Source: a virus
Lineage: Duplodnaviria; Caudoviricetes
Reading direction: 5' to 3' (one strand)
DNA length: 41,640 bases
IMG/VR virus record: IMGVR_UViG_3300032254_000012
Span: 1 to 41,640 of that record
Made by a program: the position numbers and the translations under genes. How positions within the stretch are numbered: the stretch's first letter is position 1; the number at the start of each line of letters is the position of its first letter. The notes beneath the pieces are model-generated. The model was given only the letters and a program-made list of their open reading frames with translations. It made no database searches and had not been told where the DNA came from. Positions 3,332-41,640 of the stretch are shown here, piece after piece.

Positions 3332-3833
3332 TGATGATAAAGAAAACTTGTTGTGTGAGTTTGACCCCGAATTTAATCCGTTGGTTGAAATTGGAAAACG
3401 GATCGGTGCAAAAAATTTAGATGTGGTTATGGAAGTGCTTGGAGGTCAGAAGCCACACATACCGATGCAGCATAATTTTTATGAAAGCTTAGGGCGCGAA
3501 CTTCGCAACGAAGAAATGAGGGATAAATTTACAGGTAACAACTATGGGCAGCTTTCGGTTGAGTTTAATCTAAGTTTGCGGCGAACAAGAATCATCGTTG
3601 ACAAAAAGCGTCGAGAATATAAGCGCGCTCAAGAAAACATGAAGCCGATTAAAGCAAGTGAAAGTGTGTATGGCGAAATACGCGTTTTATCAGAGCGCCA
3701 TCAAATACCTATGCATAAAGTGTTAACTGCGATCTGTGATTTTGTTTTTGAGTTTCATCAAGCAGAATTTTATGAAATTTTATGTGATGAATTTGGTGAA
3801 CAATTACAAATAATGATGGATGAGGCGGCATGA
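3309..3833 (+). CDS. Mor/C-family transcription activator with C-terminal extension
   Basis: LGGQKPHIP...RNEEMRDKFTGNNYGQLSVEFNLSLRRTRIIV resembles the Mu Mor/C pattern. Confidence 0.75.
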   Translation: MSKTKLVDDDKENLLCEFDPEFNPLVEIGKRIGAKNLDVVMEVLGGQKPHIPMQHNFYESLGRELRNEEMRDKFTGNNYGQLSVEFNLSLRRTRIIVDKKRREYKRAQENMKPIKASESVYGEIRVLSERHQIPMHKVLTAICDFVFEFHQAEFYEILCDEFGEQLQIMMDEAA

Positions 3834-26029: not shown

Positions 26030-26373
26030 TGATGAAAGGATTCCCCAAACATATCGCAACAAAAAAGGACGTTGAGCAGCTAATGGCATACATCGGCACA
26101 CCCTCTGCGACACCTGAAAAAATGACAAAAGGACTTTTGTTTTTAAACAATTTATTAAACACAAAGCATTATGTGTTTGATCGTATTTTAACTTCATCAG
26201 AAACACCAGACGGCGTTGAGCCTGATTTTCGGGTGCTTGAAAATCAGGGCGCAAACAATGATGAACGGCACCAGTTTAGTTTTGTTGAAAACGCAAATGC
26301 ACAAATGATTAAGTTAGGACTAACAGAAATAGAAGTACAAAACCATATAACCATAGTTCAAGGGGCAATGTAA
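26029..26373 (+). CDS. Hypothetical tail-associated protein
   Basis: Coupled to both neighbours. Confidence 0.7.
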   Translation: MMKGFPKHIATKKDVEQLMAYIGTPSATPEKMTKGLLFLNNLLNTKHYVFDRILTSSETPDGVEPDFRVLENQGANNDERHQFSFVENANAQMIKLGLTEIEVQNHITIVQGAM

Positions 26374-27599
26374 TGGGAGCAACACAAGAAGAATTTAGAT
26401 TCGGCACAGCAGAAGAGCATGCGGTCATGGTCGGCGCTCTTAAGGAGGTCACTTATAATACAACCGATAATATATTGGTTGCTCATGACGGTGTAACACC
26501 AGGTGGGTTTCCTATTTTACCCTCGCAAGCGGCGGGGTTTGTTTCGTTGCAGGGTGAAATTTCAAAAGGGACGGGGGATACTTTAAACATACCGCAAGGC
26601 ATGGTGAATATAGGGGGTAACGGTAAGGGGTATATGCTCGCTGCTCAAGTTGATTTTGACCCTGTTTTAGAGGCTAATCGTGACTCATCATTTACTGCGT
26701 TGGCAGTGGGAGATGATATTTATATTTATGCTACGCAATATGCGAGCGGCACAGCTAAAATTGTTAGCTCAAAAAACAGTACGTTCCCAACCGGCTACAC
26801 CGCAACAAACTCTCGCAAAATTGGTGGTTTTCATTATGGCCGCGCTCGTGTGGTTGATGTTAACGGCACGCCGATTGATGGTGCCGGGGCGGTGTATGGT
26901 GCAGACGTAACAACACCATGGGAAGCCAACGTAACCAACGGCGCGATAGTGCCGAATAGCTGCTGGGATTTACAAAATCGCCCAACGTGTGACCCAACTG
27001 GCATGGCCAAGGTTGGTAATTTCTGGGTAGATATTTATCTCGCTTCTGCAAATGTTGCGCCGGTTGTCACCAACGGCAAGTTATCAGCAGGAACAAGCCA
27101 GTCAGCCTATGGCGGAACACCTTTAACTGGAACAGAGCTCCTTAATCAATATTTATTTAACGAGCTCGCATCTCGCACCGGCAAACGACTTTTATCGTTA
27201 AGCGAACATCATCAAATCTCAGAAGGCAGCCCGCAAGGGAATGGTGCGGATAATATTAACGCCTGGTCAGCAACAACAAACCCAGGGCGCGCAATAACCG
27301 GCACTGTAGTAAACGCAATAAGCGCCAACAACTTTATTGATTGCGTTGGCAATGTTTGGGAATGGCTTGATGAGTTTATGCAGAAGCCAACAGGCGCTAC
27401 TCCAGCATATTACGATCCGATGGCTGGCCAAGGTGTTGGTCAGCTATATATGTATGAAGCGACAGGTCTGGCGGCGGTGATCACTGGTGGCAATTGGAGC
27501 GACGGCGTGTTCGCCGGTTCGCGCTCGGTGTCCTTGAACAGCTCCCCGTGGAGCGTGAACACGAGCATTGGGTCCCGCTTCGCCTGTGACGCGCTGTAA
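26373..27599 (+). CDS. Mtd-like receptor-binding protein (Mtd_N plus FGE-type C-lectin fold), DGR-target type
   Basis: N-terminal FRFGTAEEH...VAHDGVTPGGFP; DCVGNVWEW; C-terminal GGNWSDG...GSR......PW....IGSRFACD. Confidence 0.85.
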   Translation: MGATQEEFRFGTAEEHAVMVGALKEVTYNTTDNILVAHDGVTPGGFPILPSQAAGFVSLQGEISKGTGDTLNIPQGMVNIGGNGKGYMLAAQVDFDPVLEANRDSSFTALAVGDDIYIYATQYASGTAKIVSSKNSTFPTGYTATNSRKIGGFHYGRARVVDVNGTPIDGAGAVYGADVTTPWEANVTNGAIVPNSCWDLQNRPTCDPTGMAKVGNFWVDIYLASANVAPVVTNGKLSAGTSQSAYGGTPLTGTELLNQYLFNELASRTGKRLLSLSEHHQISEGSPQGNGADNINAWSATTNPGRAITGTVVNAISANNFIDCVGNVWEWLDEFMQKPTGATPAYYDPMAGQGVGQLYMYEATGLAAVITGGNWSDGVFAGSRSVSLNSSPWSVNTSIGSRFACDAL

Positions 27600-27632
27600 T
27601 AAATAACACAAAGGCAACACACCGATTTTTTT

Positions 27633-27656
27633 AAAAACACCTTCGGGTGTTTTTTT
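27633..27656 (+). terminator. Rho-independent terminator
   Basis: AAAAACACC-TTCG-GGTGTTTTTTT. Confidence 0.8.
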
Positions 27657-27676
27657 ATGCTTTGAGGAAAAACAAA

Positions 27677-27805
27677 ATGTTTTATTTAAGCAACCGTTCA
27701 AAAGTTAGACGCGATGGTGTTGACTCGCGTTTGATTGAAGTAAACGACCTCGCGCTTGAAATTAGCGTGATTGATTTTGGTATACGCCCCATAGTGGCAC
27801 TCTAA
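27677..27805 (+). pseudogene. Truncated M15-type peptidase endolysin N-terminus
   Basis: GAGG RBS; MFYLSNRSKVRRDGVDSRLIEVNDLALEISVIDFGI resembles T5-like endolysin N-termini; stops after 42 aa. Confidence 0.65.
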
Positions 27806-27808
27806 AAA

Positions 27809-27824
27809 GAACGGTGTCGGACGA
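27809..27824 (+). promoter_or_regulatory. Late-promoter motif copy 3
   Basis: GAACGGTGTCGGACGA with TAAAAT at 27843, before the lysis genes. Confidence 0.7.
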
Positions 27825-27875
27825 CTAACATAAGTGACGTTATAAAATTAACTAAACAAGCAGACAGGCAATGAT

Positions 27876-28112
27876 ATGACACCAAAAGAAATTAAACAAC
27901 TTACTAAAGAGGGTGCGCTTGAGGCTTTGGCTGAGCTTGGACTTGCAGGTGATGGCGTGGTTGAGGATATTAAAGCTATTCGCGGTTGGCTTGATGGGTA
28001 TCGCCTAGTAAAAAGAACCGCTATCCAAACAACAATAAAGATGCTGACTTTAAGTTTTTGGATTTTAATGATTGGGGGCGTTTTGGCTTGGCTAAATACG
28101 CATTTGAAATAA
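27876..28112 (+). CDS. Lysis-region membrane protein (DUF6127-like)
   Basis: EGALEALAELGL...DIKAIRGWLDGYR plus C-terminal TM segment. Confidence 0.65.
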   Translation: MTPKEIKQLTKEGALEALAELGLAGDGVVEDIKAIRGWLDGYRLVKRTAIQTTIKMLTLSFWILMIGGVLAWLNTHLK

Positions 28113-28178
28113 GGATAGGGGTAACGCCTTTGCGTTATTACGCTTTAATTTTACAACAATAAAAAACCCCGGGGTTTA

Positions 28179-28754
28179 ATGATGATTTTTATTAGCGCAG
28201 GCCACAACGAGAAAGCGCAGGGTGCATCGTATAAAGATGTGACTGAATATATTTTAACAACAAAGTGGGTTGCCTTAATTACGACATTATTGGGTGATGC
28301 TTGTGTGCGTGTTCCAAACGGTCGTTTAAAACATAAGGTTTCGTTTATTAACAGGCGCGCAACAAGAAACGATATTGCTATTGAGATTCACTTTAATTCT
28401 GCAAAGAAATGGCGCGATCTTGATGGTGACGGCGTTGTGGATGCCGATGAATTAATTGCTGTTGGTCGCGGTTCTGAAACACTTTATATGCCGAACAGCA
28501 AAAAAGGGAAAGCGGCTGCAAGCATTATGCAATCCCAACTTGGCCATTTAATGCAACCTGATCGCGGCGCAAAGGAAGGTTACTATCAAATGAACCCTGC
28601 AAAAGGCCCCGACTATTTTCTTCGCGCAACAAAATGTACTGCGCTTATTGTTGAGCCTGAGTTTATTGATAATTTAACTGAGTTAAATCAAAACATGAAT
28701 GCTGCTTGCCATGTTATTGCAGCGGCGGCATTAGAGATTAACAATAACTTATAG
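28179..28754 (+). CDS. Endolysin, N-acetylmuramoyl-L-alanine amidase (Amidase_3)
   Basis: ISAGH, TE, EIHFNS, GSET, ALIVEPEFIDN. Confidence 0.92.
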   Translation: MMIFISAGHNEKAQGASYKDVTEYILTTKWVALITTLLGDACVRVPNGRLKHKVSFINRRATRNDIAIEIHFNSAKKWRDLDGDGVVDADELIAVGRGSETLYMPNSKKGKAAASIMQSQLGHLMQPDRGAKEGYYQMNPAKGPDYFLRATKCTALIVEPEFIDNLTELNQNMNAACHVIAAAALEINNNL

Positions 28755-29442: not shown

Positions 29443-29656
29443 TATTAAGCAGGTTTGCGATATTGATGATCGTCTGGTTGTTAAAATTAAAGAGTGCCAA
29501 CGGCCTACGCATAAAGTTATTAACGGCGATGCTGTTGAGTGCATAAGAAAACTGCGTATTGATATTATGCAAGACAACCCGCGCAAAGAAGAGCTACTTA
29601 AGCAAATTCACCTCTGCAAAAATGCGCCGCAAAATTTGGCAACCCCTACAAAGTAA
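29318..29656 (+). CDS. o-spanin (Rz1-like lipoprotein); true start probably downstream of 29318
   Basis: Lipobox LSGC; overlaps the 3' end of the Rz-like gene in another frame. Confidence 0.7.
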   Translation: MKKSDRFSLKNQSLKSITLLPFILMLLILSMALSGCSKPTINIKQVCDIDDRLVVKIKECQRPTHKVINGDAVECIRKLRIDIMQDNPRKEELLKQIHLCKNAPQNLATPTK

Positions 29657-29912
29657 CACCCAATACTTTTTTTGCAGCATTAATCACAGGCTTTATTCTT
29701 GTCTGTTCGGCTTGCGTCGTTACCGCGATGTCTCTTACTGATCTTACTTGTTCGTAAATCTGGTTTTGCTGTAGGTTACTCTGAATAAGCATAAAAACAC
29801 TTAAGCCTATTGATAAAGTTGTTAGGGCGACATGAAGCGATAGCTTTGGGTTGCTATAATTGCCGACATTTTTAAATGCATTCACTATAATACTTTTTGT
29901 TTTATCATCCAT
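29646..29912 (-). CDS. Small membrane protein (likely start MDDKTK)
   Basis: One TM segment; AAGGGA upstream of the internal ATG of ORF 29646-30017. Confidence 0.5.
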   Translation of the reverse strand: MDDKTKSIIVNAFKNVGNYSNPKLSLHVALTTLSIGLSVFMLIQSNLQQNQIYEQVRSVRDIAVTTQAEQTRIKPVINAAKKVLGVTL

Positions 29913-30046
29913 AATATATAATCCCTTTGTTTTTTTTGTGGCATGATATTGCACGCAGCAAAACAACAACACAACCCCTTTAGCATAAAAATAAAGAACG
30001 GCTTTACTAAATAGCAACCAGTGGTTTATTTCGTAAAACTACTGGT

Positions 30047-30700
30047 TTATTTGGTAAAGCCATCTGTTTTGCCAACCGCGATATAAAGATTACCTAAGCT
30101 CGATACAATTTTTCTAAATTGAATATTCACATTATATTGATTTTTGTCGCGACGAAGATGTTTGGTGTTGAACGAGATAGAATCATGCTCTGATACTACT
30201 CTGCACATTTCTATATAGGTCTCTTTATCTAAATCAGGCTTTATATCATACGGGGTCATGTTTAGGATTTCTTTTTCTGCGTAGCCTGTATTTTTTAAGG
30301 CGGAGGTACTTACGTGAACAAAAGTGTGCGATTTTTCTGAGATCAAGTAGACTTCATCATCCGTCATATCCATGAAGCCCTGAATAATTTTATCTCTTAA
30401 TAAAATTAACTCGCTTTCACCTATTTTAAATTCTTCGTTACTTTCTTCTCGCATCTCATTGCGCACTTCTTCCATTTTTTCCGAGCCAAAGCGCAAAAGT
30501 ATCCAGTGAACATTAAAAAATCTTGCAAGCCTAAACATATTGGCATCAGTTATACCGCCACCTTTAGTCCAGTTTCCAACGGCTGTTTCTGACACGCACA
30601 TATATTTTGCAACCACTTTGTTGGTTACGCCGGGCGTTTCTCGTATTAAAATTAACAGCCGCTCACCAAAGGATCGGCCAAATCCTTTAGCAAATTGCAT
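30047..30700 (-). CDS. XRE-family HTH plus PAS domain regulator
   Basis: NKVVAKYMCVSETAVGNWTKG...LARFFNVHWILLRFG HTH; VSTSALKNTGYAEKEILNMTPYDIKP...HLRRD PAS signature. Confidence 0.85.
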   Translation of the reverse strand: MQFAKGFGRSFGERLLILIRETPGVTNKVVAKYMCVSETAVGNWTKGGGITDANMFRLARFFNVHWILLRFGSEKMEEVRNEMREESNEEFKIGESELILLRDKIIQGFMDMTDDEVYLISEKSHTFVHVSTSALKNTGYAEKEILNMTPYDIKPDLDKETYIEMCRVVSEHDSISFNTKHLRRDKNQYNVNIQFRKIVSSLGNLYIAVGKTDGFTK

Positions 30701-30910
30701 ACTTCTTTAACCTTGTACTAATATCGTAGATATTGATCGCAGAAAAGCGGAGGGAGATAATCTACGCAATTAAAGAGGTGGATTGTATATTATTTAGGCA
30801 CACTAAAAAACCGACAATTATTTGACACTTTTGGGGGTTGGGATTACGTTAATCATGGAATTTCATACGAAATCCCATGATCAATGAATATTATAATAAT
30901 AGAGAAGGGT

Positions 30911-31546
30911 TTATTTGGTTGCTTTAATAAATTCTTGGAAACCATATACCCCCGAAGCTTCAACGGCTGCTTGGTGGTATTCTTCTTTTTCTTTTGATTT
31001 GACCGGAATTGAGCAATCACCTTCAATAAAACTACGCTCCAAATCCACTTTTACAAGAAGAGTATTTGCTTTTGTGAATCGCTCAATTAATGCCCTGTTT
31101 ACAATATAGCGCTTTGTTGCTGCGTAGGTGGCTGGCGCATATATAGTAGGCAAATAAACCCCGCGGGCATAAAAGCTACCTGCGCTTTGAAACTCGGTTA
31201 GTTTTTCTGTTTTCGTTATTTTGTCGATTGATGATAAACCAACGGTTGCACCATCAATTTTAAAATGTAACGAGTTATTGGTTGCAATGCTGGAGTGGAT
31301 CGGCGTTTTAACTGTTAAGATAATTTTATCTTGTTGTCGCTGTTTTTCGTCCTGGTATAAGTCCATGCGAATAATGGTACCGTCGTCTGCGCAGGCAATA
31401 TTTTTAACTCTGGTGTATTTTAAGTTATTAAACTTAGATTCGCCTTGAGTAACAACATTATAAAATTTACGATGAAGACTTGATGTGTCATAGCTTGCGC
31501 AGCCTGCCAGTAAAGCAAAGAGGGTTGTTAGTAGCCCGATTTTCAT
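30911..31546 (-). CDS. Lipoprotein (moron; possible superinfection exclusion)
   Basis: Signal peptide with LAGC lipobox; directly downstream of the repressor. Confidence 0.75.
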   Translation of the reverse strand: MKIGLLTTLFALLAGCASYDTSSLHRKFYNVVTQGESKFNNLKYTRVKNIACADDGTIIRMDLYQDEKQRQQDKIILTVKTPIHSSIATNNSLHFKIDGATVGLSSIDKITKTEKLTEFQSAGSFYARGVYLPTIYAPATYAATKRYIVNRALIERFTKANTLLVKVDLERSFIEGDCSIPVKSKEKEEYHQAAVEASGVYGFQEFIKATK

Positions 31547-31574
31547 TTTTACTTTTCCTTAAGTTTTATTTTAA

Positions 31575-32063
31575 TCACATCGCCAACTTTACGAGTGAGG
31601 CGATATCTTTTTTATTGATTTTGCCATTATTTTTTAGCACCTGGTCGTAGCTATAGGCTAAAAGGTAATCGAACTTCGATTGATCGTGTTCTGTTTTAAT
31701 TTCTACACCAGCTTCATTGATTAACTCATGAACGGCTTTGCTGACTTCATCAAACAGGGTGTAGTCAATACTGCTGTATGCAGGGGAGGTTTCGGCCACG
31801 CCGCACAACATATCAACCTTTTCGGGGCCTCTACCATTAATCACCCATTCGAGAGAGTAACCCTTTTCCCTGGCAAAGCTTACTAAGTAGTCAAAGGGAA
31901 GACTGTCCCGTGACTTAAACCCAGCTAAAGATCTTCTATCCATATCCAGCGCTGTTGCTGCATCGGTATCGAAACGCCAGCCCTCAGATACTTTTAGGCG
32001 CTCAAGCACAGAATTAAGTGAATATTTATTGTTATTTTCGCTATATTTTGTTGACATTATCAT
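31575..32063 (-). CDS. CI-like repressor (186/HP1 CI-type HTH, no peptidase domain)
   Basis: VLERLK...ALDMDRRSLAGFKSRDSLPFD...YSLEWVINGRG; divergent from the Cro-like genes. Confidence 0.8.
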   Translation of the reverse strand: MIMSTKYSENNNKYSLNSVLERLKVSEGWRFDTDAATALDMDRRSLAGFKSRDSLPFDYLVSFAREKGYSLEWVINGRGPEKVDMLCGVAETSPAYSSIDYTLFDEVSKAVHELINEAGVEIKTEHDQSKFDYLLAYSYDQVLKNNGKINKKDIASLVKLAM

Positions 32064-32098
32064 AATTACGTCTATTATTGTCTATATTAGATAGACAA
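32051..32098 (+). promoter_or_regulatory. Early promoter and operator palindrome
   Basis: TTGACA at 32051, TATTAT at 32073; TTGTCTAT-N5-ATAGACAA at 32078-32098. Confidence 0.6.
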
Positions 32099-32121
32099 AC
32101 AGGATATTAGGTAGTCAAATT

Positions 32122-32391
32122 ATGTCGCAAGTGACTGATATAAAAGAAATTAACACATCGAAGCCGCTTTTTCTCCTAAAAAAGCACGGTATTAGCTTAA
32201 GCGGCATAGGTCGGGGCGTCGGTTTTTGTACTGATACTGTAAGCGCCGTTCTTAATCCAAAAAAATGTGACGGGGTTAGTCACAAAATCACCATAAAAGT
32301 TCGCGGACGTGTTGATGCTTTATTGGTTGCAGCTGGCGAACCTGTTGACGGGTTGTGGCTTGAGCACGACCGCATGGATGAGGCAGCATAA
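32122..32391 (+). CDS. Cro/Ner-like HTH protein
   Basis: LKKHGISLSGIGRGVGFCTDTVSAVLN. Confidence 0.7.
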   Translation: MSQVTDIKEINTSKPLFLLKKHGISLSGIGRGVGFCTDTVSAVLNPKKCDGVSHKITIKVRGRVDALLVAAGEPVDGLWLEHDRMDEAA

Positions 32392-32759
32392 TGGTCGCCT
32401 TTGCTACCGAACAACAAAAAGTTCCACAGGTGGAAAAGTTGCCACGTGGAACACTCCATAAAAAAGACTCTAATTTGCCTATTGCTTTGCGTGATTGGTC
32501 TATCGCTAAAACAACTTTGCGCAAGTATGGCGTTAGCCAGGATGATGTGGCTGATTACATTGACACGCCAAAATCCACCATTAATCGTTGCCTTGATTTT
32601 CGTCGCTTTTATCGTGCCGAGCATATTAATTTGATGCGTGTGCGCTCTGCTGTTGAGTTGCTCCTTGATGAAGCAGGGTGGCCACAGGCAGACGATGTTG
32701 CTCAGGGTGTCAATGATCTCTGGCAAGACTATGAGTCTGAACTTTGCGAGATGATGTAA
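32391..32759 (+). CDS. HTH protein, paralogue of the preceding gene
   Basis: LRKYGVSQDDVADYIDTPKSTINRCL. Confidence 0.7.
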   Translation: MVAFATEQQKVPQVEKLPRGTLHKKDSNLPIALRDWSIAKTTLRKYGVSQDDVADYIDTPKSTINRCLDFRRFYRAEHINLMRVRSAVELLLDEAGWPQADDVAQGVNDLWQDYESELCEMM

Positions 32760-33485
32760 ATGAAACTTATTGGCTACATTCGCGTTTCGACTGATGAGCA
32801 GGCTAAAGATGGTCAAAGCCTTTCTATTCAGGATTTGCAGCTGCATAAGTATTGTGAGCTGCATGGACACGAGTTGATAGATGTGATCGTTGACGATGGA
32901 GTTAGCGCAAGCATTAATCTGGATAAGCGCCCAGCCGGCTTTATGTTGCTTGATAGATTGAAAGATAAAGAGGCCGATGGTTTTGTTGTGCAGCGTTTGG
33001 ATCGCGCTTTTCGCATTACTATTGATGGTTTGTTGACTGCTGAGTTGTTTAACAAGCGCGGACTGACGATTCACTCTGTTAACGAACATATCGACACGAC
33101 CACGGCTTTTGGTAAGTTTGTTTTGCGTTCCATGCTTTCGATGGCCGAACTTGAGCGAGATAAAATTAGTGAGCGTGCCACAGAAACGTTTGAGGGTTTG
33201 CGTGACCAAGCCAAACCTTGGGGGCCAACACCGTTTGGGTTGGTTCGTGTTGGTGACAAACTTTATCGTGACAAAGAAACGTGGGCGGTGCGTGAGGCGG
33301 TTATTTCTTTGCGTGACACTCTTTCTTTGCGCGCTGTTTGTACTGAGCTGCAACAGCGTGACATTGCCAGCCCAAGCGGGGGCAAGTTGTGGCATCCAAG
33401 TACTTTGATTGGGATCATTAATAATCATAATGAGTTAAAGCATATACCTTTTTTAAAGGCTTGCAATGAAGCGCGGGTTTCATAG
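32760..33485 (+). CDS. Serine recombinase (resolvase/invertase family)
   Basis: GYIRVSTDEQ, DDGVSA, RLDRAFR, AELERDKISERA; short C-terminal DNA-binding region. Confidence 0.95.
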   Translation: MKLIGYIRVSTDEQAKDGQSLSIQDLQLHKYCELHGHELIDVIVDDGVSASINLDKRPAGFMLLDRLKDKEADGFVVQRLDRAFRITIDGLLTAELFNKRGLTIHSVNEHIDTTTAFGKFVLRSMLSMAELERDKISERATETFEGLRDQAKPWGPTPFGLVRVGDKLYRDKETWAVREAVISLRDTLSLRAVCTELQQRDIASPSGGKLWHPSTLIGIINNHNELKHIPFLKACNEARVS

Positions 33486-33503
33486 GTGAAGAATTTAAAA
33501 AAC

Positions 33504-33659
33504 ATTAAGAGTTCTTAGCGAGGGGAATAAGTAGCACAAGACTAAGTGCAACGAAATCAAAATAGCTACAGTTGAACGTTTTCCCAGCGTGCTGCTCCAT
33601 AAGACAACTAGAGATAACAGGTGGTTTGGTCACCGCCTCTCTCGCTAAGAATTCTTAAT
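33504..33659 (+). ncRNA. Putative structured RNA closed by a 22-bp stem
   Basis: 33504-33525 pairs with 33638-33659; all three non-Watson-Crick positions are G-U on the + strand. Confidence 0.5.
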
Positions 33660-33706
33660 ATTGTTTAATGTATTGCAATATAGCTCAATGAATAAAGGGG
33701 TGGGAT

Positions 33707-33928
33707 ATGACAGAACAATCTAACGAAATAGGTTCGTGTGAAGTGTGTGGTTTGGTTGATCATCATTTGGTTGATGGAGCATGTAACGCATGCAATAGCA
33801 AGCATAACCTTGTTACCGGTGAGCATGCCTGTAATGATAATTATGTACTTGACGTTTCTCGCTCTATAGATGCCGCCTTAAAGCAAGCGGCATTTTCTGA
33901 GACGCTAAATGTTGAGGTTACAGCATGA
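33707..33928 (+). CDS. Small Zn-finger-like protein
   Basis: CEVC...CNAC. Confidence 0.7.
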   Translation: MTEQSNEIGSCEVCGLVDHHLVDGACNACNSKHNLVTGEHACNDNYVLDVSRSIDAALKQAAFSETLNVEVTA

Positions 33929-34104
33929 TTTTATATTATGTCTCGATAGGCGCAATATTGATTTTAATTATTATTGGTGCATTCTTTTTATTTAAACCTA
34001 ATAAAAATGATTCATGTTTTTGTCACCCCCCACAACCTCGCCCTAAAGCGCCGCCAAGAAAAAACGGCGTGGTGGGCGAACCTATTGAGTGGCCCAGCAA
34101 ATGA
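33925..34104 (+). CDS. Small membrane protein (59 aa, not in ORF track)
   Basis: ATGA-coupled at both ends; N-terminal TM segment then Pro-rich tail. Confidence 0.6.
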   Translation: MILYYVSIGAILILIIIGAFFLFKPNKNDSCFCHPPQPRPKAPPRKNGVVGEPIEWPSK

Positions 34105-34337
34105 AAATGGTTGCTAATCAACTTGGCCTGGCTGTTATTAATAACGAGTCTTTTTTAATTCATATTCTGCTTATTCAACCAGATAAAATTACGGCTCGAC
34201 TTTATAACAGCACAACAGGCCGATGGTTGTCTAAAAGAAAAATTGAAGCAAGCGACATTAAATATGTTTTTTATCACGTTGGCGGAAAACCTCAAAAATT
34301 ATTACCGCCGAAAGCAACAACAAAGGTAGCGGCATAA
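34101..34337 (+). CDS. Hypothetical protein
   Basis: Coupled ORF within track ORF 34089-34337. Confidence 0.6.
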   Translation: MKMVANQLGLAVINNESFLIHILLIQPDKITARLYNSTTGRWLSKRKIEASDIKYVFYHVGGKPQKLLPPKATTKVAA

Positions 34338-34909
34338 TGGAAACGCGGAACGAAACAATTGAAAGAATTGTGACTGATTATATTCGAGTAACATCGGTTA
34401 GTTGGGATACATATAGCCAGTCTGTTTTAGAGCATTATCACGAATGCGTTCTGTCTATGAAGCGCAGCGTTAAGTTTCATGTTGGCGGGGATGTTTTTAA
34501 GGATGGTCGCGCGAATGCACAGCTTGTTGGACGTTTATTGCGTGGTGATGTGCGCATGCCCGTAGAGATTGAAGAGAGCCTGATTGAGGCGCTGCCTGAT
34601 GAGTGGCGTAAGAACTTAAAGTCTGTTCTTGCTACCCGCATGGGCTTGCTTGCTTCGCCTATTCCTGGCGATAAAACATCGGTTGAGTTTCGACATATCG
34701 GACAGATGGCGAAAGAATTTGGTGATTTGCTTTCAGTTGTTAGTGAGGCTTATGAAGATGACACGTTTGATAACAATGACGCCCATTTAGCAGACAGAAT
34801 TTTAAAAGAAGGTTGTGACCTTATGGCGATGGTTACTACCGTTATGCATAAGGCCGAGCAAATTAACAAACAAAGCAAGGTTCATTTTTTAAACCGGAAT
34901 AAGGGGTGA
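34337..34909 (+). CDS. Phage regulatory protein (CII-like, tentative)
   Basis: Helical; MAKEFGDLL...D.....ILKEG.DL pattern. Confidence 0.5.
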   Translation: METRNETIERIVTDYIRVTSVSWDTYSQSVLEHYHECVLSMKRSVKFHVGGDVFKDGRANAQLVGRLLRGDVRMPVEIEESLIEALPDEWRKNLKSVLATRMGLLASPIPGDKTSVEFRHIGQMAKEFGDLLSVVSEAYEDDTFDNNDAHLADRILKEGCDLMAMVTTVMHKAEQINKQSKVHFLNRNKG

Positions 34910-35169
34910 AGGTCATGCAAGAACACAATATTGACTTAAGTTCATTATCTAAACGTAAAGAAATTACAGATGCTTTTTTAGGCAGTCTTACTCCGTGCGA
35001 GCTTAGAGTCTGGAACAAATGGTTTCCGTCGAAAACAGTAACAGACATTATGTTGCTTCGCGTTTTGCGCGGGCGTCGATTCCCTTTAATACAGGGTGGT
35101 AAAATTGGTAGCGGAATACGCCCGTTTTCGCATACACCAGCGCCATTAGGCGGCGGTCACGCGGCATGA
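34906..35169 (+). CDS. Hypothetical protein
   Basis: Coupled ORF. Confidence 0.6.
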   Translation: MKVMQEHNIDLSSLSKRKEITDAFLGSLTPCELRVWNKWFPSKTVTDIMLLRVLRGRRFPLIQGGKIGSGIRPFSHTPAPLGGGHAA

Positions 35170-35387
35170 ACAACCATGTTAGCCAAAAAAAGCTAGAAGA
35201 TGTGTTGATTGCCATCTGGGGCGGCAAGAGTTATTCGCACTGGCAAATGGTGTCTTCTATTTGCTTTGGTTTTTCTTTACTTTTTAAAAATGCAGATAAT
35301 GATAAATTTTTACAGTGTTTTTGTTTATACCAAGTCGCCACGGTTATGGCCAATGAGTGTTGTAATAATTTAAAGGCAGCAGCATGA
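35166..35387 (+). CDS. Hypothetical protein
   Basis: ATGA-coupled ORF. Confidence 0.6.
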   Translation: MNNHVSQKKLEDVLIAIWGGKSYSHWQMVSSICFGFSLLFKNADNDKFLQCFCLYQVATVMANECCNNLKAAA

Positions 35388-36367
35388 CAAAAACGATTGA
35401 TTTTAAGCCCGTTCATTTTAAGCCTCGCGAGGTTTCTGTGCCTGGCGTGATTGTTAAAACAATGTCTCAGTTTATTGTTTTTTTAAGGGGGCATAATTTA
35501 TCAGATAATACATTGATAGCTTATCAAACAGACCTGGAACAATTAGCCGGTTTTTTGTTGTCGCGTGATATTCATCATGTGCAACAAGTTGCCACCCATC
35601 ATCTTGATGATTTTATTACGGCATTGGTTGACGGCGAAGGCATTAAGCCGCGCAGCGCTGCACGCAAACTGGCAACGGTTCGCCGGTTTTTTAAATTTTG
35701 TATAAGCCGTAAAATTATTTTAAGCGATCCGGCAATTCATACAGAAAAGGTTCGTTTTTCTTTTACGCCAGCCATTGCGCCGACAGAAGATGTTTTGTTG
35801 TCTCTTATTGAAAACATTCCCGCTAACACAACTATTGGCTTACGTGATCGAGCAATGTTTAGACTGCTTTATGATGCGGGCTTGCGGCGAGCCACATTGC
35901 GTGAGCTTGATGTTTTTAATGAGAAAAATCCGCCTGACTGCACTGTGTGGCCTAACCTTGTGGTGACGTTCACAAATAAAGGTGGCAACAATGAAAACAA
36001 CCCAATTAACGAAACCACTAAAAGATATGTGGATGAGTGGCTTGAGGTTCGCCAGCATTTTACGCGCAACAAAAGCTGTAATGCTTTATTTTTATCTAAC
36101 CGTGGGACGCGCTTAACCTCTAACGCAATTCATGATCGTTTAAAAATTTACGCTAAAAAAGAAGGGGTGCCGCATATGCATATGCATTTGTTTCGGCATG
36201 GAAGGGCGCGACATATTATTGATAAATTAGGCTTGCAAGCCGCTCAAGGCTTTTTAAAGCACTCAGACATTCGCACAACAGCAAACATTTATGGGCTTCA
36301 AGATACGGCTAAAGTGCGTCAAAAGCTACGAGATGAGTGCGAGCTTGGCACTGAGGCCGCAGCGTGA
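35384..36367 (+). CDS. Tyrosine recombinase, XerC/D-like (no. 2)
   Basis: SDNTLIAYQTDL, RDRAMFRLLYDAGLRR, NKGG, HLFRHG, LKHSDIRTTANIY. Confidence 0.93.
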   Translation: MTKTIDFKPVHFKPREVSVPGVIVKTMSQFIVFLRGHNLSDNTLIAYQTDLEQLAGFLLSRDIHHVQQVATHHLDDFITALVDGEGIKPRSAARKLATVRRFFKFCISRKIILSDPAIHTEKVRFSFTPAIAPTEDVLLSLIENIPANTTIGLRDRAMFRLLYDAGLRRATLRELDVFNEKNPPDCTVWPNLVVTFTNKGGNNENNPINETTKRYVDEWLEVRQHFTRNKSCNALFLSNRGTRLTSNAIHDRLKIYAKKEGVPHMHMHLFRHGRARHIIDKLGLQAAQGFLKHSDIRTTANIYGLQDTAKVRQKLRDECELGTEAAA

Positions 36368-37422
36368 AAAAATTAAAAATTAATGCACAAGCTTTATTGG
36401 CTGCGTTAAGTCGTGCGCCTTATATCGCAAAAGATAAAATTCTTAGTATGGCGCTGTTGGAGCTATTTGATGGCAAGGTGACTTTAACCAGCATGGACCA
36501 CAGCGCAACAATGATTCAGCACGTTGATTATGACAGCGGGAATATTAATCCTGTTGCGTTAGATATTGTGTTGCTTAGTGGCGTGTTACAAAATATGACG
36601 GGGCGCATAACGCTAAACCAAAAAGACAACAAAATTTCGTTAACCAGTGGTAAGCGTCGATTTAATATTCCTTGTATTCCTGGTGAACACTTTCCCTCTT
36701 TGCCAGATTTAACGATTAAACCTTTCAAAGCAAATATGTCTGATCTTCTTAATGGCTTGCGCCACGTATTTTATGCCGCAGGCAAGCATGACGTTAGGCT
36801 TTTTTTAAATGGCATTTGTTTACAGCGGGACAATATGGTTGCTACAGATGGCCATCGAATTGCTGTCTATCCATTTGAGTGCGATATGCCTGACGATCAA
36901 GGCGTGATTATTCCGCGCGACTCTGTTCAGTTAATTCAAAAACATGTTCGCCCAGATTGTTCGGCTCATTTGATTTACACCAACAATAGCAGCAACGTAA
37001 ATATGCTGGCTTTTAAGTCTTCGTCGTTTCAGCTTTATTGCAAGTTAATTGACCTTAAATATCCGGAGTGGCGGAGCAAAACACCTAACTGTAACGAACA
37101 AGAACACCATATATCAATTGACAAGCCTGAAATGCAAGCCGCCTTACAACGCTTATCTTTATTTGAAGGGTTGTTTGACATTAGTAAAACATCAACGGGA
37201 ATTTCTTTATCCTCTAAAGATGCAGAAGATGATTTGCATGCAGAAGTTGAATCAAACGAGGACTTTACCGTTTCAATGAGCAACCGTTATTTTTCTGATG
37301 CGCTTAGCCTTTGTGGTGATGACGACAAGATCACACTTCATGGTTCTGGTCCGTATCAAATTTGGATGCTTACCATTAAAGGTAAGCCTGAGACACATTA
37401 CATGCTGCCATTTAAGAGGTAA
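36364..37422 (+). CDS. DNA polymerase III beta sliding clamp homologue (DnaN-like)
   Basis: 352 aa; EHFPSLP, DVRLFLNGI, VATDGHRIA, VIIPR, KLIDLKYP, MLP. Confidence 0.88.
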   Translation: MKKLKINAQALLAALSRAPYIAKDKILSMALLELFDGKVTLTSMDHSATMIQHVDYDSGNINPVALDIVLLSGVLQNMTGRITLNQKDNKISLTSGKRRFNIPCIPGEHFPSLPDLTIKPFKANMSDLLNGLRHVFYAAGKHDVRLFLNGICLQRDNMVATDGHRIAVYPFECDMPDDQGVIIPRDSVQLIQKHVRPDCSAHLIYTNNSSNVNMLAFKSSSFQLYCKLIDLKYPEWRSKTPNCNEQEHHISIDKPEMQAALQRLSLFEGLFDISKTSTGISLSSKDAEDDLHAEVESNEDFTVSMSNRYFSDALSLCGDDDKITLHGSGPYQIWMLTIKGKPETHYMLPFKR

Positions 37423-37428
37423 AACACT

Positions 37429-37905
37429 ATGAATATCCCAAACATACCCATGCACACATTAAACAATCTCACTAATAAAGAATTGCTTAGCCATATTCAA
37501 TGTTGTGTTCACCCAGTTATTGAGTCGTTATATTCACGCATGAGCGACTTAACCGAAGAAGAGGGAGAAGTAAACGCTTTAGAAAACGACATTTCAGAAA
37601 AAAAATTAGAAATTGACGAGTTAAAAAATATTATTAACGATCTTTTGGATGACATAGCTGAAGAGGATGAAGATATGAAGGAGTCACAAGCTGAAGCATT
37701 ATTGTTTGCACTTAAAACCAAGCCGATGACAAAGTTTGAAATTTTTACTGAGCTGGGAATTTGGAATAGCGGAGCGCGCATTAAAGAACTGCGCGATGTT
37801 GGTCATGCGATAGAAACTAAAATGATTGAGCATATAAGCGAAAAGTGGGGCAAGGGTGAAGTTGCACAATATATTCTTCACGAAGCCGTTGAGCAAGCAG
37901 CGTAA
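37429..37905 (+). CDS. Coiled-coil plus C-terminal winged HTH protein
   Basis: PMTKFEIFTELGIWNSGARIKELRDVGHAIET. Confidence 0.7.
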   Translation: MNIPNIPMHTLNNLTNKELLSHIQCCVHPVIESLYSRMSDLTEEEGEVNALENDISEKKLEIDELKNIINDLLDDIAEEDEDMKESQAEALLFALKTKPMTKFEIFTELGIWNSGARIKELRDVGHAIETKMIEHISEKWGKGEVAQYILHEAVEQAA

Positions 37906-38180
37906 TGCATCAAGACATTATTAATGCAGCTTTTGAATTGGTTGGTGCGTTTATCGTTTGGATGAATGTGTGGAAGCTATACCAGGACAGCGAGATTAAA
38001 GGTATCTATTGGCCTACGTTTGCATTTTTTGCGGCATGGGGCTTATGGAATTTATATTATTACCCAAGCCTTGGACAGTGGCTAAGTTTTGGGGCTGGGG
38101 TGTTGCTTGTCTCAGGTAATATTGCGTGGATAGCTGTAGCGTTTAAATTAAAAACGATAAGGATTAATAATGAAGGATAG
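37905..38180 (+). CDS. Three-TM membrane protein (PQ-loop/SemiSWEET-like)
   Basis: 91 aa, three TM segments, KLYQDSEIKGIYW loop. Confidence 0.6.
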   Translation: MHQDIINAAFELVGAFIVWMNVWKLYQDSEIKGIYWPTFAFFAAWGLWNLYYYPSLGQWLSFGAGVLLVSGNIAWIAVAFKLKTIRINNEG

Positions 38181-38463
38181 ACTTTGCCCTCGATGTGGTT
38201 CTCGTAATTTAGTATCACTTAAAACGTGCGGCGTGTGCATGACGCCTTTACGGCAAAAGCGCTTTCACATGGATAAAAATAAGATTAGCTATGTTCATGT
38301 TTTAGCACTAAAACAGAAAGGTTTAACAGAAGAAGAATACAAATTACGACTTAATGCTGTTGGTGTTGAAAGCTGCAAAGAATTAAAACGCGATAACTAT
38401 TATAAATTTGTTGATGGGTTGCGCAAGCTGCCAGACGCACCGAGCACAAAGAAGGCAGCATGA
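38170..38463 (+). CDS. GemA (Mu gp16)-like protein with N-terminal Zn ribbon
   Basis: YVHVLALKQKGLTEEEYKLRL..VGVESCKEL; CPRC..CGVC. Confidence 0.6.
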   Translation: MKDRLCPRCGSRNLVSLKTCGVCMTPLRQKRFHMDKNKISYVHVLALKQKGLTEEEYKLRLNAVGVESCKELKRDNYYKFVDGLRKLPDAPSTKKAA

Positions 38464-38828
38464 GCAAATATCATTTCGAGCGTATTTCTCAAGGCCAAAC
38501 TTTTAAAGTAAAGGGCTTGCCGGGCGATCATGACCGCATGTACATAACTATTAACGAAGAGTCTGGCGCGCCTTTCGAGGTGTTTGTTCGTTATGACTCG
38601 CACGAACATTTTGAATTAATTAATGTGATTGCAAGACTGTCATCTATGGCGTTGCGCGAAGGTGTACCGCTTGATGTTGTTGCTCGCGAGCTAAAAGATA
38701 TACATAGCCCAGAAACACACCATATTGTTCCTGGTACATCACGCACCTGCCCGAGCATTACGGCGCGAATTGGTGAAATGCTAGATAAGTATTTTGAACA
38801 ACAACAATTAAAAAAAGAGGCTGCATGA
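38460..38828 (+). CDS. Stand-alone TSCPD/NrdJb-like domain protein
   Basis: MYITIN...PFEVF...ARLSSMALREGVPLDVVARELKDI...SITARIG. Confidence 0.75.
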   Translation: MSKYHFERISQGQTFKVKGLPGDHDRMYITINEESGAPFEVFVRYDSHEHFELINVIARLSSMALREGVPLDVVARELKDIHSPETHHIVPGTSRTCPSITARIGEMLDKYFEQQQLKKEAA

Positions 38829-39445
38829 AATACCAAATAATACTTGCTGATCCACCATGGAAATATAGCTGTTGGGCGGGGCAAGATAGCAGGGTGGCCG
38901 ATGCTCATTATCCTGTTATGAGTACGCAACAGATTTGTGATATGCGGCCCATGATCGACAACATTGCTGATGATGACTGCGCTTTGTTTATGTGGGGCGT
39001 ACCACCGATGATGCCAGACGCTTTTAAAGTTATGGATGCATGGGGTTTTCGTTATATTAGTTTTGCTTTTTTATGGGTTAAAACGAACAGCAAGCCTATG
39101 TCGCATAAAGATCAGCATCTTGCTTTAAGCAAACATAAACCATTGATCACCTTAGATGATAATGTTTATACGGTTGCAACAGGCATGGGCACGTACACAC
39201 GAGCAAACAGCGAGCCATGCTTTTTAGCTGTTCGTGGAAAAATGCCAGTAACGCACCATGACGTAAACCAAATTATATTGTCTCCGCGTAGGTCGCACAG
39301 CGAAAAACCTAAAGAACAATATAAAAAAATTCAACGGCTATATCCAAATAAAAAGCGTATCGAGTTATTTGCTCGTAGCAAACAACCTGGATGGCATGCT
39401 TGGGGTAATGAAGTAAAATCAACAATAACAAATAAGGCAGCATAA
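38825..39445 (+). CDS. MT-A70 family adenine methyltransferase
   Basis: IILADPPW, ALFMW, AWGFRY, HSEKP, IELFAR, GWHAWGNE. Confidence 0.93.
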   Translation: MKYQIILADPPWKYSCWAGQDSRVADAHYPVMSTQQICDMRPMIDNIADDDCALFMWGVPPMMPDAFKVMDAWGFRYISFAFLWVKTNSKPMSHKDQHLALSKHKPLITLDDNVYTVATGMGTYTRANSEPCFLAVRGKMPVTHHDVNQIILSPRRSHSEKPKEQYKKIQRLYPNKKRIELFARSKQPGWHAWGNEVKSTITNKAA

Positions 39446-39446
39446 A

Positions 39447-39791
39447 ATGGAGCGAGACGTTAACGAAGTAAGGTTAAAAGGCCGCCTGGGAAGCAGCCTA
39501 AAAATAAACCCTGCGCGAACCGCCGCAATGGTATCAATTGCGACCAAAGAAGAATGGGGAGACCAAAACAAAAAAGAAAAAACCTCTTGGCATACTTTGC
39601 AGTTTTATGGAGCAAAGAAAGTGGCGGCTGCAGCAGATGCTTTAAGCAAGGGCAGCCGCGCTTATATAACAGGAAAACTACAGAACGAAAAATGGACAGG
39701 CGCTAACGGGCAAGATAACTTTATGACTAAAGTTGTTGTCGATACATTCGAGCCTTTAGATAAAAAGAAAACTACACCTACAAACAATTGA
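39447..39791 (+). CDS. ssb: Single-stranded DNA-binding protein (no acidic tail)
   Basis: VNEVRLKGRLG, TSWH, LSKGSRAYITGKLQNEKW. Confidence 0.9.
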   Translation: MERDVNEVRLKGRLGSSLKINPARTAAMVSIATKEEWGDQNKKEKTSWHTLQFYGAKKVAAAADALSKGSRAYITGKLQNEKWTGANGQDNFMTKVVVDTFEPLDKKKTTPTNN

Positions 39792-39801
39792 GGGGAACAC
39801 G

Positions 39802-39900
39802 ATGAGTAGACAATATGAAGAAATAAGCAACGCGGCAAGAACGCAAGGATTTTTGTCCGGCGTTATTGTTTCAAGTTTGTTTTGGTGGGTTTTTTCGTAA
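39802..39900 (+). CDS. 32-aa membrane peptide
   Basis: GAGGGG RBS; its TAA lies in the first TAAC box. Confidence 0.5.
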   Translation: MSRQYEEISNAARTQGFLSGVIVSSLFWWVFS

Positions 39901-39969
39901 CGATTGAGCTTAGGGGCGCGAGCGAAGCGAGTCCGAGTGAATAAAATGAGCGAACTGGAGTAATTTGTT

Positions 39970-40197
39970 ATGCAAGAAAATAAAACGATAACTATTAATT
40001 GGGATAAAGGCCGCATCTGGCATTCTGACTGCGACAACCATCTTGGTGGCGTAATGGTAGAAGTTAAGTCAAACGTGATGTTTGATGGGAAGCCTTACGG
40101 GCTAATGAAGTGCTTGCACTGTGACAGACAAGGTTACTACCCCAATGGTGGCAGTGGTAAATTTGAAGCTAAAGAAGTTAGTGAAAACGCTGCATAA
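39970..40197 (+). CDS. Cassette gene, small Cys/His protein
   Basis: Bounded by GTTATGCA / TGCATAAC. Confidence 0.75.
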   Translation: MQENKTITINWDKGRIWHSDCDNHLGGVMVEVKSNVMFDGKPYGLMKCLHCDRQGYYPNGGSGKFEAKEVSENAA

Positions 40198-40288
40198 CGA
40201 CTATATAACTGGCGCAGCTCCGCTGCGTCCAAACGAGCAAAGCAAGTGATGTTAATTGTTTTGTTATATTGTTTATTGGAGAAAGATT

Positions 40289-40489
40289 ATGAAGCAAGAA
40301 GAAATTAAAGAGTTAAAGAGAAAATTAGAAGCTGATATAGCTTGTGCAGTATCAAAGTTAACAAGAGAGTTTAACGAGCAGACAGGCTTTCAAATAAGCT
40401 CGGTTGGGATTGAGATAAGCGAGATAAAAACCGTAGGAAAAGAAGACGAATATGTTGTAACCGATGCTTTTGCTGGTATTGGAATATAA
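40289..40489 (+). CDS. Cassette gene, hypothetical
   Basis: GGAG RBS; bounded by GTTATATT / AATATAAC. Confidence 0.75.
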   Translation: MKQEEIKELKRKLEADIACAVSKLTREFNEQTGFQISSVGIEISEIKTVGKEDEYVVTDAFAGIGI

Positions 40490-40502
40490 CGCTTGAGGTT
40501 AG

Positions 40503-40658
40503 TTGAGAGCGAAAGCAAGTGAAACGCCGCTTTATGGATTTTTTTGTAATAAACGCTGCAATTTAAGCGATCGAGAGGAAGACAAACTTCTCTCTAATTT
40601 AAGCAAAGAATCATACAGACAAAAAAGTAAGGTGTGTTTTGAGGGGAAAGAAATATAA
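40503..40658 (+). CDS. Possible cassette gene remnant (51 aa, TTG start)
   Basis: GAGG at 40495 inside the degenerate site; stop in ATATAAC. Confidence 0.35.
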   Translation: MRAKASETPLYGFFCNKRCNLSDREEDKLLSNLSKESYRQKSKVCFEGKEI

Positions 40659-40741
40659 CGCAGAGTTGTTGGGTGGCCGGTTTTATCGGCCATCACGCAC
40701 GAACGCCTTGTTACATGGCTAACTATTTGAGGAAATAAGTG

Positions 40742-40918
40742 ATGGAAGAAATACAAAAGTCTTTTGAGGATTGGTTTATTAATATGCACGGTGATGTAGA
40801 CGAAAGCCTTGTCAAAAATAAAACAGATGATGGTAAGCGGTATATTGATAGCACTACCGATAGCGCGTGGTTTTGCTTTAAAGCTGGCTATTGTCATTGT
40901 GCAACTAAAGACATGTAA
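40742..40918 (+). CDS. Cassette gene, hypothetical (58 aa, not in ORF track)
   Basis: GAGG RBS; MEEIQKSFEDWF...AWFCFKAG; bounded by GTTACATG / CATGTAAC. Confidence 0.75.
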   Translation: MEEIQKSFEDWFINMHGDVDESLVKNKTDDGKRYIDSTTDSAWFCFKAGYCHCATKDM

Positions 40919-40941
40919 CGCTAACTATTGAGGGGCGCACG

Positions 40942-41517
40942 ATGAATACGGAAAATAAAGCTAAATGCCCAAAGCATGATACAGGTGGTGGACCATGTTA
41001 CTGCGACAATGTAAGTGCGTCCGGCTCGAATGACTTGTTATCTTCCGAAACTGGAGCAACTTTTTCTCAAGATAGGAATTACCGATATTCGCTTTGGCGG
41101 CGATGGGAGCATAACGCGCCTTATGTTTTATTTGTTGGCCTAAACCCTTCGACCGCTAATGAAAACGAAGATGATCCAACAATTAGACGATGCAAGCGTT
41201 TTGCGGCTGATTGGGGCTTCGGTGCTATATACATGGCGAATTTGTTCGCACTACGCGCAACAGACCCAAAGGACATGCTGGCTCATGACAAACCAGAAGG
41301 AGTTGATAACGATAAAACTCTTCAAAAGTTGGCGCGTGGTGCAGGAGTTATAGTTTGTGCTTGGGGTGCGCACGGTGGGCACAAAGGGCGGGACGAATAC
41401 GTAGCACGATTATTAGAAGCGTATGAATTGAAGTGTCTCGGTGTAACTAAAGCAGGAAAGCCTAGGCATCCTCTTTATATTAAAGCGGATAAACAACTCG
41501 AAGCACTAGGAAGATAA
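40942..41517 (+). CDS. DUF1643 family protein (cassette gene)
   Basis: YRYSLWRRW, GLNPSTA...DDPTIRRC, NLFALRATDP, AWG, PRHPLY. Confidence 0.9.
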   Translation: MNTENKAKCPKHDTGGGPCYCDNVSASGSNDLLSSETGATFSQDRNYRYSLWRRWEHNAPYVLFVGLNPSTANENEDDPTIRRCKRFAADWGFGAIYMANLFALRATDPKDMLAHDKPEGVDNDKTLQKLARGAGVIVCAWGAHGGHKGRDEYVARLLEAYELKCLGVTKAGKPRHPLYIKADKQLEALGR

Positions 41518-41535
41518 CGATAGAGGTAAGCGGAG

Positions 41536-41640
41536 ATGAACGAAGCGCAGCGTAGTGAAGAGTCCGGCGACGAAGGAGCGAACTTGACCGTTTTGTTATC
41601 TTCTGCTGGATACATGCACCCTAAAGAGCTTGAGCGTATG
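41536..41640 (+). CDS. Partial cassette gene starting inside the last attC-like site
   Basis: GGAG-ATG at 41536; 35 codons open to the window end. Confidence 0.55.
   Translation, partial: MNEAQRSEESGDEGANLTVLLSSAGYMHPKELERM

Follow-up and report, generated by a model that had tools for sequence, protein, structure and literature searches.

How does a temperate phage come to carry, at the end of its early operon, a row of integron-like sites separating small genes, and what would move them? The question is raised by the viral record IMGVR_UViG_3300032254_000012 (Duplodnaviria; Caudoviricetes), whose 41,640 nucleotides (nt), analysed at full length and called the window below, contain genes for head, tail, lysis, repressor and replication by family searches. 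The initial annotation described a cassette array from 39895 to 41640 without an integron integrase (IntI), and supposed that its cassettes are moved by a host IntI or by the phage's own recombinases. Our analysis points with good confidence to a complete phage-encoded integron, comprising intI, an attI candidate and eight attC sites, with its genes on the bottom strand of those sites and its own IntI likely moving units made of an attC and the gene downstream of it. What speaks for this is the structure and polarity of the sites, an intact IntI located 48 nt after a conserved AAC core, the cognate end boxes, and the gain or loss of units at AAC in relatives. Judged by the sequences of integrase, attC and attI, the element is a member of the integron family, having neither the classical layout, nor that of an integrase-less attC cluster (CALIN), nor that of the Treponema type.

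The stretch missing from the window

Among public contigs aligned to the window is a 44,442-nt record which extends beyond both of its ends; 2,799 bases of the circular 44.4-kb phage are absent from the window. A circle made by joining the window end to the window start was rejected, since these 2,799 nt are missing from it. The same phage is found on a metagenome contig, locus L106, which is 100% identical to the window over the 4,938 nt before the cut and 99.99% identical over 12,722 nt after it, with the 2,799 nt in between (window 41640 corresponds to L106 4938). This insert carries the remainder of gene F, sites S7 and S8, genes G and H, an AAC core without a hairpin, intI, and a XerC-like open reading frame (ORF) on the minus strand. 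In metagenome run X1 the whole missing stretch is part of one circular 44,442-nt contig, which may be the source of the window, and which therefore confirms the linkage and not independent biology. The reported lack of IntI is an artefact of where the window was cut, the array does not end at 41640 but includes two further sites, and no foreign enzyme need be invoked. As a caution, CALIN calls on cut contigs can be artefacts.

Integron integrase and attI candidate

The intact intI gene (Table 1) specifies a protein that matches TIGR02249 [426 bits, cut-off 265], its best solved relative being VchIntIA of V. cholerae [2e-91, PDB 2a3v]. It possesses the insertion of about 30 residues which aligns with that of IntI1 and the Shewanella IntI. 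Residues R135, K160, H266, R269, H292 and Y301, which we take to be the tyrosine-recombinase catalytic positions, are invariant in 15 aligned IntI sequences. Three Xer-like proteins of the phage score 94.5, 31.8 and 74.4 bits with the same model and are without the insertion; together with a serine resolvase-like protein and IntI they make five recombinases in 44 kb. Since intI starts 275 nt after S8, the array is not a CALIN.

Between the last cassette gene and intI lies the attI candidate. The sequence from the last AAC to intI is the same in a related locus, L189, whose last cassette differs. In 29 viral junctions adjoining intI, positions 5–7 after AAC are A, T and T in 27, 27 and 29 cases, respectively, a conservation which by comparison marks attI, and in relative L228 a unit is inserted at this conserved core motif.

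A search for the cassette promoter, Pc, returned a single 9/12 match on the minus strand (L106:5813-5786), antisense to the genes, and matches in the region numbered 10 against 13.0 in shuffled sequences; scans for promoters and terminators gave no excess over shuffles. It is its position that speaks for the candidate rightward early promoter, since promoter-like matches overall do not exceed those in shuffles. This promoter likely drives the operon which ends in the array and intI. Co-directional ORFs run from 32122 through to intI, which bears out the earlier placement of the array at the end of the rightward early operon.

Structure and polarity of the attC sites

The covariance model (CM) and arm score that we used were built from 15 classical sites only, those of a Shewanella prophage integron and a class 1 integron, with intI oriented plus. 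Applied to L106:1-9000 on both strands, the CM gave eight matches, which are exactly S1–S8, all on the plus strand and four with E < 0.001. In the whole window it recovered five of the six sites situated there and found none elsewhere. Arm scores for seven of the eight sites were 22–34 on the plus strand and -13 to +5 on the minus strand; shuffled windows give 0.4 hits per strand at a score of 22. In a held-out Vibrio array, used as control, 16 sites were assigned to the expected strand and a single stray one to the opposite strand. Because both scores place the sites on the plus strand as in the classical controls, we take this strand to be the attC bottom strand. All eight sites are thus matched by a model of classical attC sites, which have R and L boxes, an unpaired spacer and an extrahelical base on the bottom strand; a bulged G is present where expected in S4–S8. 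In the control arrays the genes lie on the minus strand; in this phage they lie on the plus strand, as shown by family matches for genes B, D, E and G, and all identified genes read towards attI and not away from it. The arrangement of the platform is classical; what is inverted is the orientation of the cassette genes, which point towards intI at the end of the early operon. This most unusual feature was overlooked in the initial annotation.

Much of the first description of these sites stands. The six sites of 64–131 nt separating small genes are real attC sites, and their paired boxes are indeed the footprint of integron cassettes. The pattern NNNTAAC...GTTANNN fits five of the six; S3 ends in GTA and the box match of its cassette has been lost. 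An open frame stops in the TAAC at all six sites; the frame ahead of S4 (40503-40658, starting with TTG and without a family match) is doubtful as a gene. The four box pairs named earlier are exact reverse complements over 8, 8, 8 and 10 nt. When boxes were permuted, the observed cognate pairing score was reached by 2 of 120 permutations for the five cassettes in the window, and by 6 of 40,320 for all eight cassettes.

According to PMC5027507 and PMC5371416, the preference of IntI for the bottom strand determines how cassettes are oriented. Because of this preference the mobile unit should be an attC plus the gene after it, so that each gene would belong with the site in front of it. Several sites appear joined to their genes. 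The right arm of S1 carries the Shine-Dalgarno-like (SD-like) GGAG of gene A, the ATG of which overlaps the GTTA box. S5 includes an SD-like sequence, an ATG and the first 33 codons of gene E, whose in-frame starts are codons 1 and 32 (both within S5) and next only codon 98, with the domain beginning at residue 48. S6 likewise includes an SD-like sequence and the in-frame ATG (41536) of gene F. Gene B has a weak Pfam match to GnsAB, under the cut-off, and a 110-nt remnant cassette, C, follows S3. The 32-aa ORF ahead of S1 is probably not a cassette; it would be resident DNA bordering the far end of the array.

Table 1. Features of the array, the integrase region and associated genes. Coordinates are those of the window unless prefixed L106; polarity is the arm score on the plus and the minus strand.
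Feature	Coordinates	Strand	Remarks
Candidate rightward early promoter	32051..32078	+	between cI-like and cro-like genes; best consensus match in 29500-39900 (11/12)
32-aa ORF	39802..39900	+	after ssb; stop in TAAC of S1; no matching GTT box
attC S1	39895..39973	+ (= bottom strand)	CM 26.7 bits; polarity 31.4 vs -4.6
Cassette gene A, 75 aa	39970..40197	+	no family match; boxes pair over 8 nt
attC S2	40192..40269	+	CM 17.5 bits; polarity 22.4 vs -8.3
Cassette gene B, 66 aa	40289..40489	+	PHROG 1707 (unknown function); boxes pair over 8 nt
Decayed attC S3 (GTA for GTT)	40484..40552	+	CM 15.2 bits, E 0.067
attC S4	40653..40716	+	CM 13.2 bits, E 0.18; polarity 23.2 vs -5.1
Cassette gene D, 58-59 aa	40742..40918	+	weak PHROG 343 match; boxes pair over 8 nt
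attC S5, 131 nt	40913..41043	+	CM 17.3 bits; polarity 29.2 vs -11.6
Cassette gene E, DUF1643, 191 aa	40942..41517	+	PF07799, E 5e-47, residues 48-178; boxes pair over 10 nt
attC S6	41512..41601	+	CM 31.4 bits, E 2e-5; polarity 33.6 vs 4.6
Cassette gene F, 104 aa	41536..41640 and on past window end; whole gene L106:4834-5148	+	no family match; boxes pair over 9 nt
attC S7	L106:5149-5209	+	CM 24.2 bits
Cassette gene G	L106:5230-5475	+	PHROG 7810
attC S8	L106:5470-5554	+	CM 25.1 bits
Cassette gene H	L106:5574-5780	+	stop in TAAC; boxes pair over 9 nt
attI candidate	L106:5775-5828	+	AAC core, no hairpin after; 48 nt ahead of intI start
intI, 320 aa	L106:5829-6791	+	start 891 nt past window end; same strand as cassette genes, pointing away from attI; intact
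Recombinase genes other than intI	2264-3331, 35384-36367, 32760-33485; L106:6804-7793		three Xer-like, one serine resolvase-like

Window 39780-39870, after ssb, resembles both arms of S5 around the 32-aa ORF and is possibly a dead ninth site; a degenerate site ahead of S1 ("S0") was discarded, having no CM match. An Rfam scan of the window gave no match. With plain minimum-free-energy folding most sites do not form the attC hairpin, and polarity cannot be read from it. A blastn search with the array found nothing among cultured phages and one DUF1643 match among plasmids.

Variation of the array in related phages

Cassette content, the comparison of which the initial annotation had proposed as a check, varies among relatives. 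Locus L228 differs from L227 (99.985% identical over 6,532 nt) by two additional units; both begin and end at AAC, and one of them lies at the attI core. Loci L243 and L244 have identical IntI, flanks which are 99% identical, and a common 356-nt gene segment that is 100% identical; the site 5' of the segment is 96% identical and the 50 nt 3' of it only 56%, with both edges at AAC. Of 11 homologous pairs only this one was informative (it is counted twice via a duplicate locus; 7 were duplicates and 2 too distant). L189 combines a different backbone, an IntI of 85% identity and the same attI with different array genes, and has seven sites by eye and six by the CM. Complementary end boxes together with variable content among relatives are what one expects of cassettes.

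In run X2 the segment L106:4812-5158, whose limits agree with those of S6 and gene F to within 4 nt, forms a contig of its own at a depth of 62, its flanks having depths of 38 and 36; a different sequence precedes S6 at a depth of 14. The S6-gene F cassette thus sits in a second context in the X2 sample. The alternative sequence is present in none of 269 loci, and the idea that it stems from an excised circle was ruled out, as it is not the end of gene F. The arms of S5 and S8 (window 41006-41041; L106:5511-5553; runs X2 and X3) also occur on contigs at a depth of about 280–310 in X2, and in some of these an SD-like sequence and an ATG follow on that strand; the contigs represent a different element of higher abundance that has these site families in common with the phage.

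Distribution among viruses and bacteria

A scan of viral sequences found 354 stretches coding for a relative of the phage IntI, the best 80 of which (41–85% identity) were examined. Upstream sites were present on the plus strand in 51 of the 80 loci and on the minus strand in none. The bacterial set consisted of 20 loci picked for long flanks from 116 IntI-positive genomes, these being 116 of the 301 genomes of the one bacterial class searched (a tally that takes in four genomes marked unpublished, G042, G120, G264 and G274, on which nothing else here depends). After removal of five near-duplicate loci, and of cassettes with a box match below 6 or a span above 1 kb, 54 of the 94 viral cassettes were inverted, 15 classical and 25 unclear, against 3, 67 and 15 of the 85 bacterial ones [Fisher p 7e-21, overstated as the cassettes are non-independent]. 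PHROG matches were obtained for 33 of 88 plus-strand ORFs and 2 of 84 minus-strand ORFs, and only one of the 56 longer minus-strand ORFs tested matched Pfam. Among the 54 inverted cassettes of relatives, 23 have a longest frame whose start is within the site, and in 31 the longest frame stops exactly in the closing TAAC. Recognizable cargo in relatives (33 family matches) includes five DNA methyltransferases, four PAPS-reductase-like proteins, one Lar-like and one Mom-like protein.

Classical cassettes are commoner next to attI (9/34) than elsewhere (6/60). Some of the classical calls may be antisense shadows (L207), and L233:5399-6097 is a plus-strand methyltransferase. A few viral IntI loci (L221:10003-10576, L235, L252, L263) have attC matches downstream of intI, two of these being on the opposite strand.

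In a quick tree of 108 IntI rows this IntI falls in an all-viral group of 23 rows (SH-aLRT 98); a second all-viral group comprises 28 rows (99), and the viral IntI of L240 pairs with one from a bacterial genome. The bacterial sample of the tree is one class.

Other routes to relatives yielded little. Loci reached via MT-A70 (20 loci, 30–40% identity) and DUF1643 (two loci) contain no arrays at the threshold used (L001-L022), the two viral DUF1643 homologues having no attC nearby; the Xer-like gene at 35384 led to no relatives. Exact site patterns were found in 0, 0 and 3 loci of viral contigs, a site of L189 gave only chance matches to phages, and virus Rctr41k has an IntI-like gene with no upstream sites in the site scan.

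Proposed mechanism and alternative explanations

From known integron chemistry one would assume that the phage IntI binds the folded hairpin of the plus strand and cuts between AA and C, and that the circle so released is then inserted at attI. Each new cassette would enter immediately ahead of intI, at the distal end of the early transcript, and displace the older ones towards the promoter. The rightward early transcript presumably replaces Pc and also reads intI, and some genes may obtain their ribosome-binding site or start codon from the attC. Because IntI fixes the orientation of insertion by the bottom strand, host cassettes are predicted to land antisense in the phage array, and phage cassettes antisense to Pc in a host integron; the two pools could recombine together yet be expressed apart. 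The phage likely shuffles a phage-specific pool of accessory genes.

Several observations weigh against this interpretation. No excised circle, a form whose detection had been suggested earlier, and no cassette-removing joint was seen in the contigs of L106, X1 and X2, in all of which the array is the same, contigs being apt to drop rare forms. The second context of S6 and gene F in X2 may belong to another phage. S3 has decayed, S3 and S4 are weak CM matches (E 0.067 and 0.18), and the inner boxes of S1 pair poorly. Among the viral loci, 29 of 80 have no upstream site at the threshold used, many of them having little upstream DNA; the 15 classical and 25 unclear viral cassettes were sorted by a crude ORF-length classifier; and the PHROGs are biased towards phage genes. 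Read-through of the early transcript as far as intI is presumed from gene order and strand.

Part of this evidence would suit a frozen relic, in which the layout is as we describe it, IntI no longer moves the array, and homologous recombination between similar attC sites accounts for the differences among phages. The array unchanged in three assemblies with no cassette-skipping joint, the state of S3 and S1, and site families common to phages (S8 is 90% identical to a site of L189) all agree with it. An intact intI with every catalytic position conserved does not, nor do the L227/L228 and L243/L244 junctions, which fall at AAC with unlike sequence directly after, something homology-driven exchange would not need; we regard a relic as unlikely. 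Far less room is left for an integrase-less cluster filled by a host IntI or a phage Xer-like recombinase. The window itself is without IntI, attC sites are recognized by several IntIs (PMC2095811), so that a host enzyme could also act, and IntI is frequent in the bacterial class searched (116/301). As the sole mechanism it is ruled out by the phage's own IntI and attI candidate, and the Xer-like proteins fall well under the TIGR02249 cut-off and lack the insertion; we consider it very improbable.

Least credible of all is the capture by the prophage of part of an ordinary chromosomal integron of its host, the situation in the Vibrio and Shewanella phages described by Qi et al. 2023. Structurally the sites are of one family with the attC of Shewanella and of class 1 integrons, and the L240 IntI has its bacterial partner in the tree. 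Against this, the genes are inverted, unlike 67 of the 70 scored bacterial cassettes and the Vibrio and Shewanella phage controls, the cargo matches phage families, only 48 nt separate the attI core from intI, and the integrase lies within the well-supported viral group of the quick tree. We therefore retain the complete integron, worked by the phage's own IntI, as the best explanation.

Integrons are treated as bacterial devices that phages carry by accident; here the platform appears wired into the early operon, with cassettes that make sense only on the phage transcript, and complete platforms of this layout seem to be present in this phage and dozens of others. The cargo in relatives would point to a programmable counter-defence locus, and the system may offer a site-specific mechanism for part of phage mosaicism. 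With a 320-aa IntI, a 48-nt attI region and eight sites it is also a compact test system, and it gives an approach to the origin of cassettes. One might go further and suggest that many temperate phages have domesticated integrons as a gene-shuffling device, with virus-only IntI lineages, a mirror-image pool of early and anti-restriction cassettes that is silent at the host Pc, and cassettes newly made when an attC is placed before a resident gene whose stop gives the AAC core. This we put forward tentatively, thinking it rather doubtful as a whole. If true, phage arrays would be a place to watch and test cassette birth, a long-open question about integrons.

Other features of the phage genome

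A dif-like site is located at window 108-135 between the XerC-like gene and a replication gene. Its 17-nt left part has matches in 24 of 60 published bacterial genomes searched, mostly once, and 0 control matches, and the sequence recurs in related phage loci L023, L108 and L207, the last of which has the same order of array, intI, convergent XerC-like gene, dif-like site and replication gene. Window 108-135 is thus likely to be the attP for integration at a host dif site. Five 29-nt palindromic repeats within the replication initiator gene (window 492-684) are likely origin iterons. The phage also has an Mtd-like tail fibre gene (window 26373-27599; PF21916, FGE-sulfatase fold); no reverse transcriptase was found among the ORFs scanned and no template-like repeat in window 26300-28300. 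Outside the array there are three DNA methyltransferase-like genes (window 3830-4720, 11002-11844 and 38825-39445).

Comparison with known systems

Phage integrons and CALINs have already been published; the inverted layout appears new in the literature searched. No description of phage integrons with inverted cassettes was found there, subscription papers and bioRxiv supplements lying outside its scope, and the passages concerned of PMC8876359 and 10.64898/2026.09.14.751636 contain nothing on inverted cassettes. Qi et al. 2023 (PMC9892861), cited here for its main text and part of its supplement, reports 3 complete integrons, 1 In0 and 17 CALINs in 10,705 phage genomes, and recombination by IntI1 of five of the six phage attC sites tested; genes inverted relative to attC polarity are not mentioned in those parts. 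This phage resembles theirs in carrying integron parts on a phage genome and methyltransferases as cargo in relatives. Unlike it, their complete Vibrio and Shewanella integrons and the TJE1 CALIN have classical polarity.

One of the sites tested in that study, PH101_attC2, has as its bottom strand the strand of the annotated genes after it, and the PH101 CALIN appears to be of the inverted kind. An apparently inverted array thus already includes a site on which IntI1 acts. PH101 is without IntI, unlike the present phage. In Pseudoalteromonas phage H101, the same attC occurs twice (L324:2030-2086 and 3432-3488), each copy with a near-identical leader of about 60 nt and followed by a different gene on the bottom strand; the published CALIN appears to have the inverted layout. 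Insertion at attG, by which IntI places cassettes at short non-att cores (10.1101/2022.09.11.507474, in the part consulted), could account for the array's far edge at S1 and for phage arrays that have no integrase; the phage platform itself has instead an attI candidate and a linked intI.

The inverted-integrase integrons of Treponema (as presented in the relevant parts of PMC3607928 and PMC13323075) share with this phage the location of intI and cassette genes on one strand. There, intI is turned, being transcribed towards attI ahead of normal cassettes; in the phage intI is normally placed and last, pointing away from attI, the attC polarity relative to intI is that of the classical controls, and it is the genes inside the cassettes that are turned.

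With classical integrons, both class 1 and sedentary chromosomal, the phage element has in common an IntI with the insertion, attC sites with a bulged G on the bottom strand, an attI beside the 5' end of intI, an intI that points away from the array, cognate end boxes and insertion at attI. Where it departs from them is in its cassette genes, which are phage early genes, occupy the bottom strand and are read in the direction of attI and intI. Each of these genes is preceded by its own attC, which may contain the start codon, and no Pc was found.

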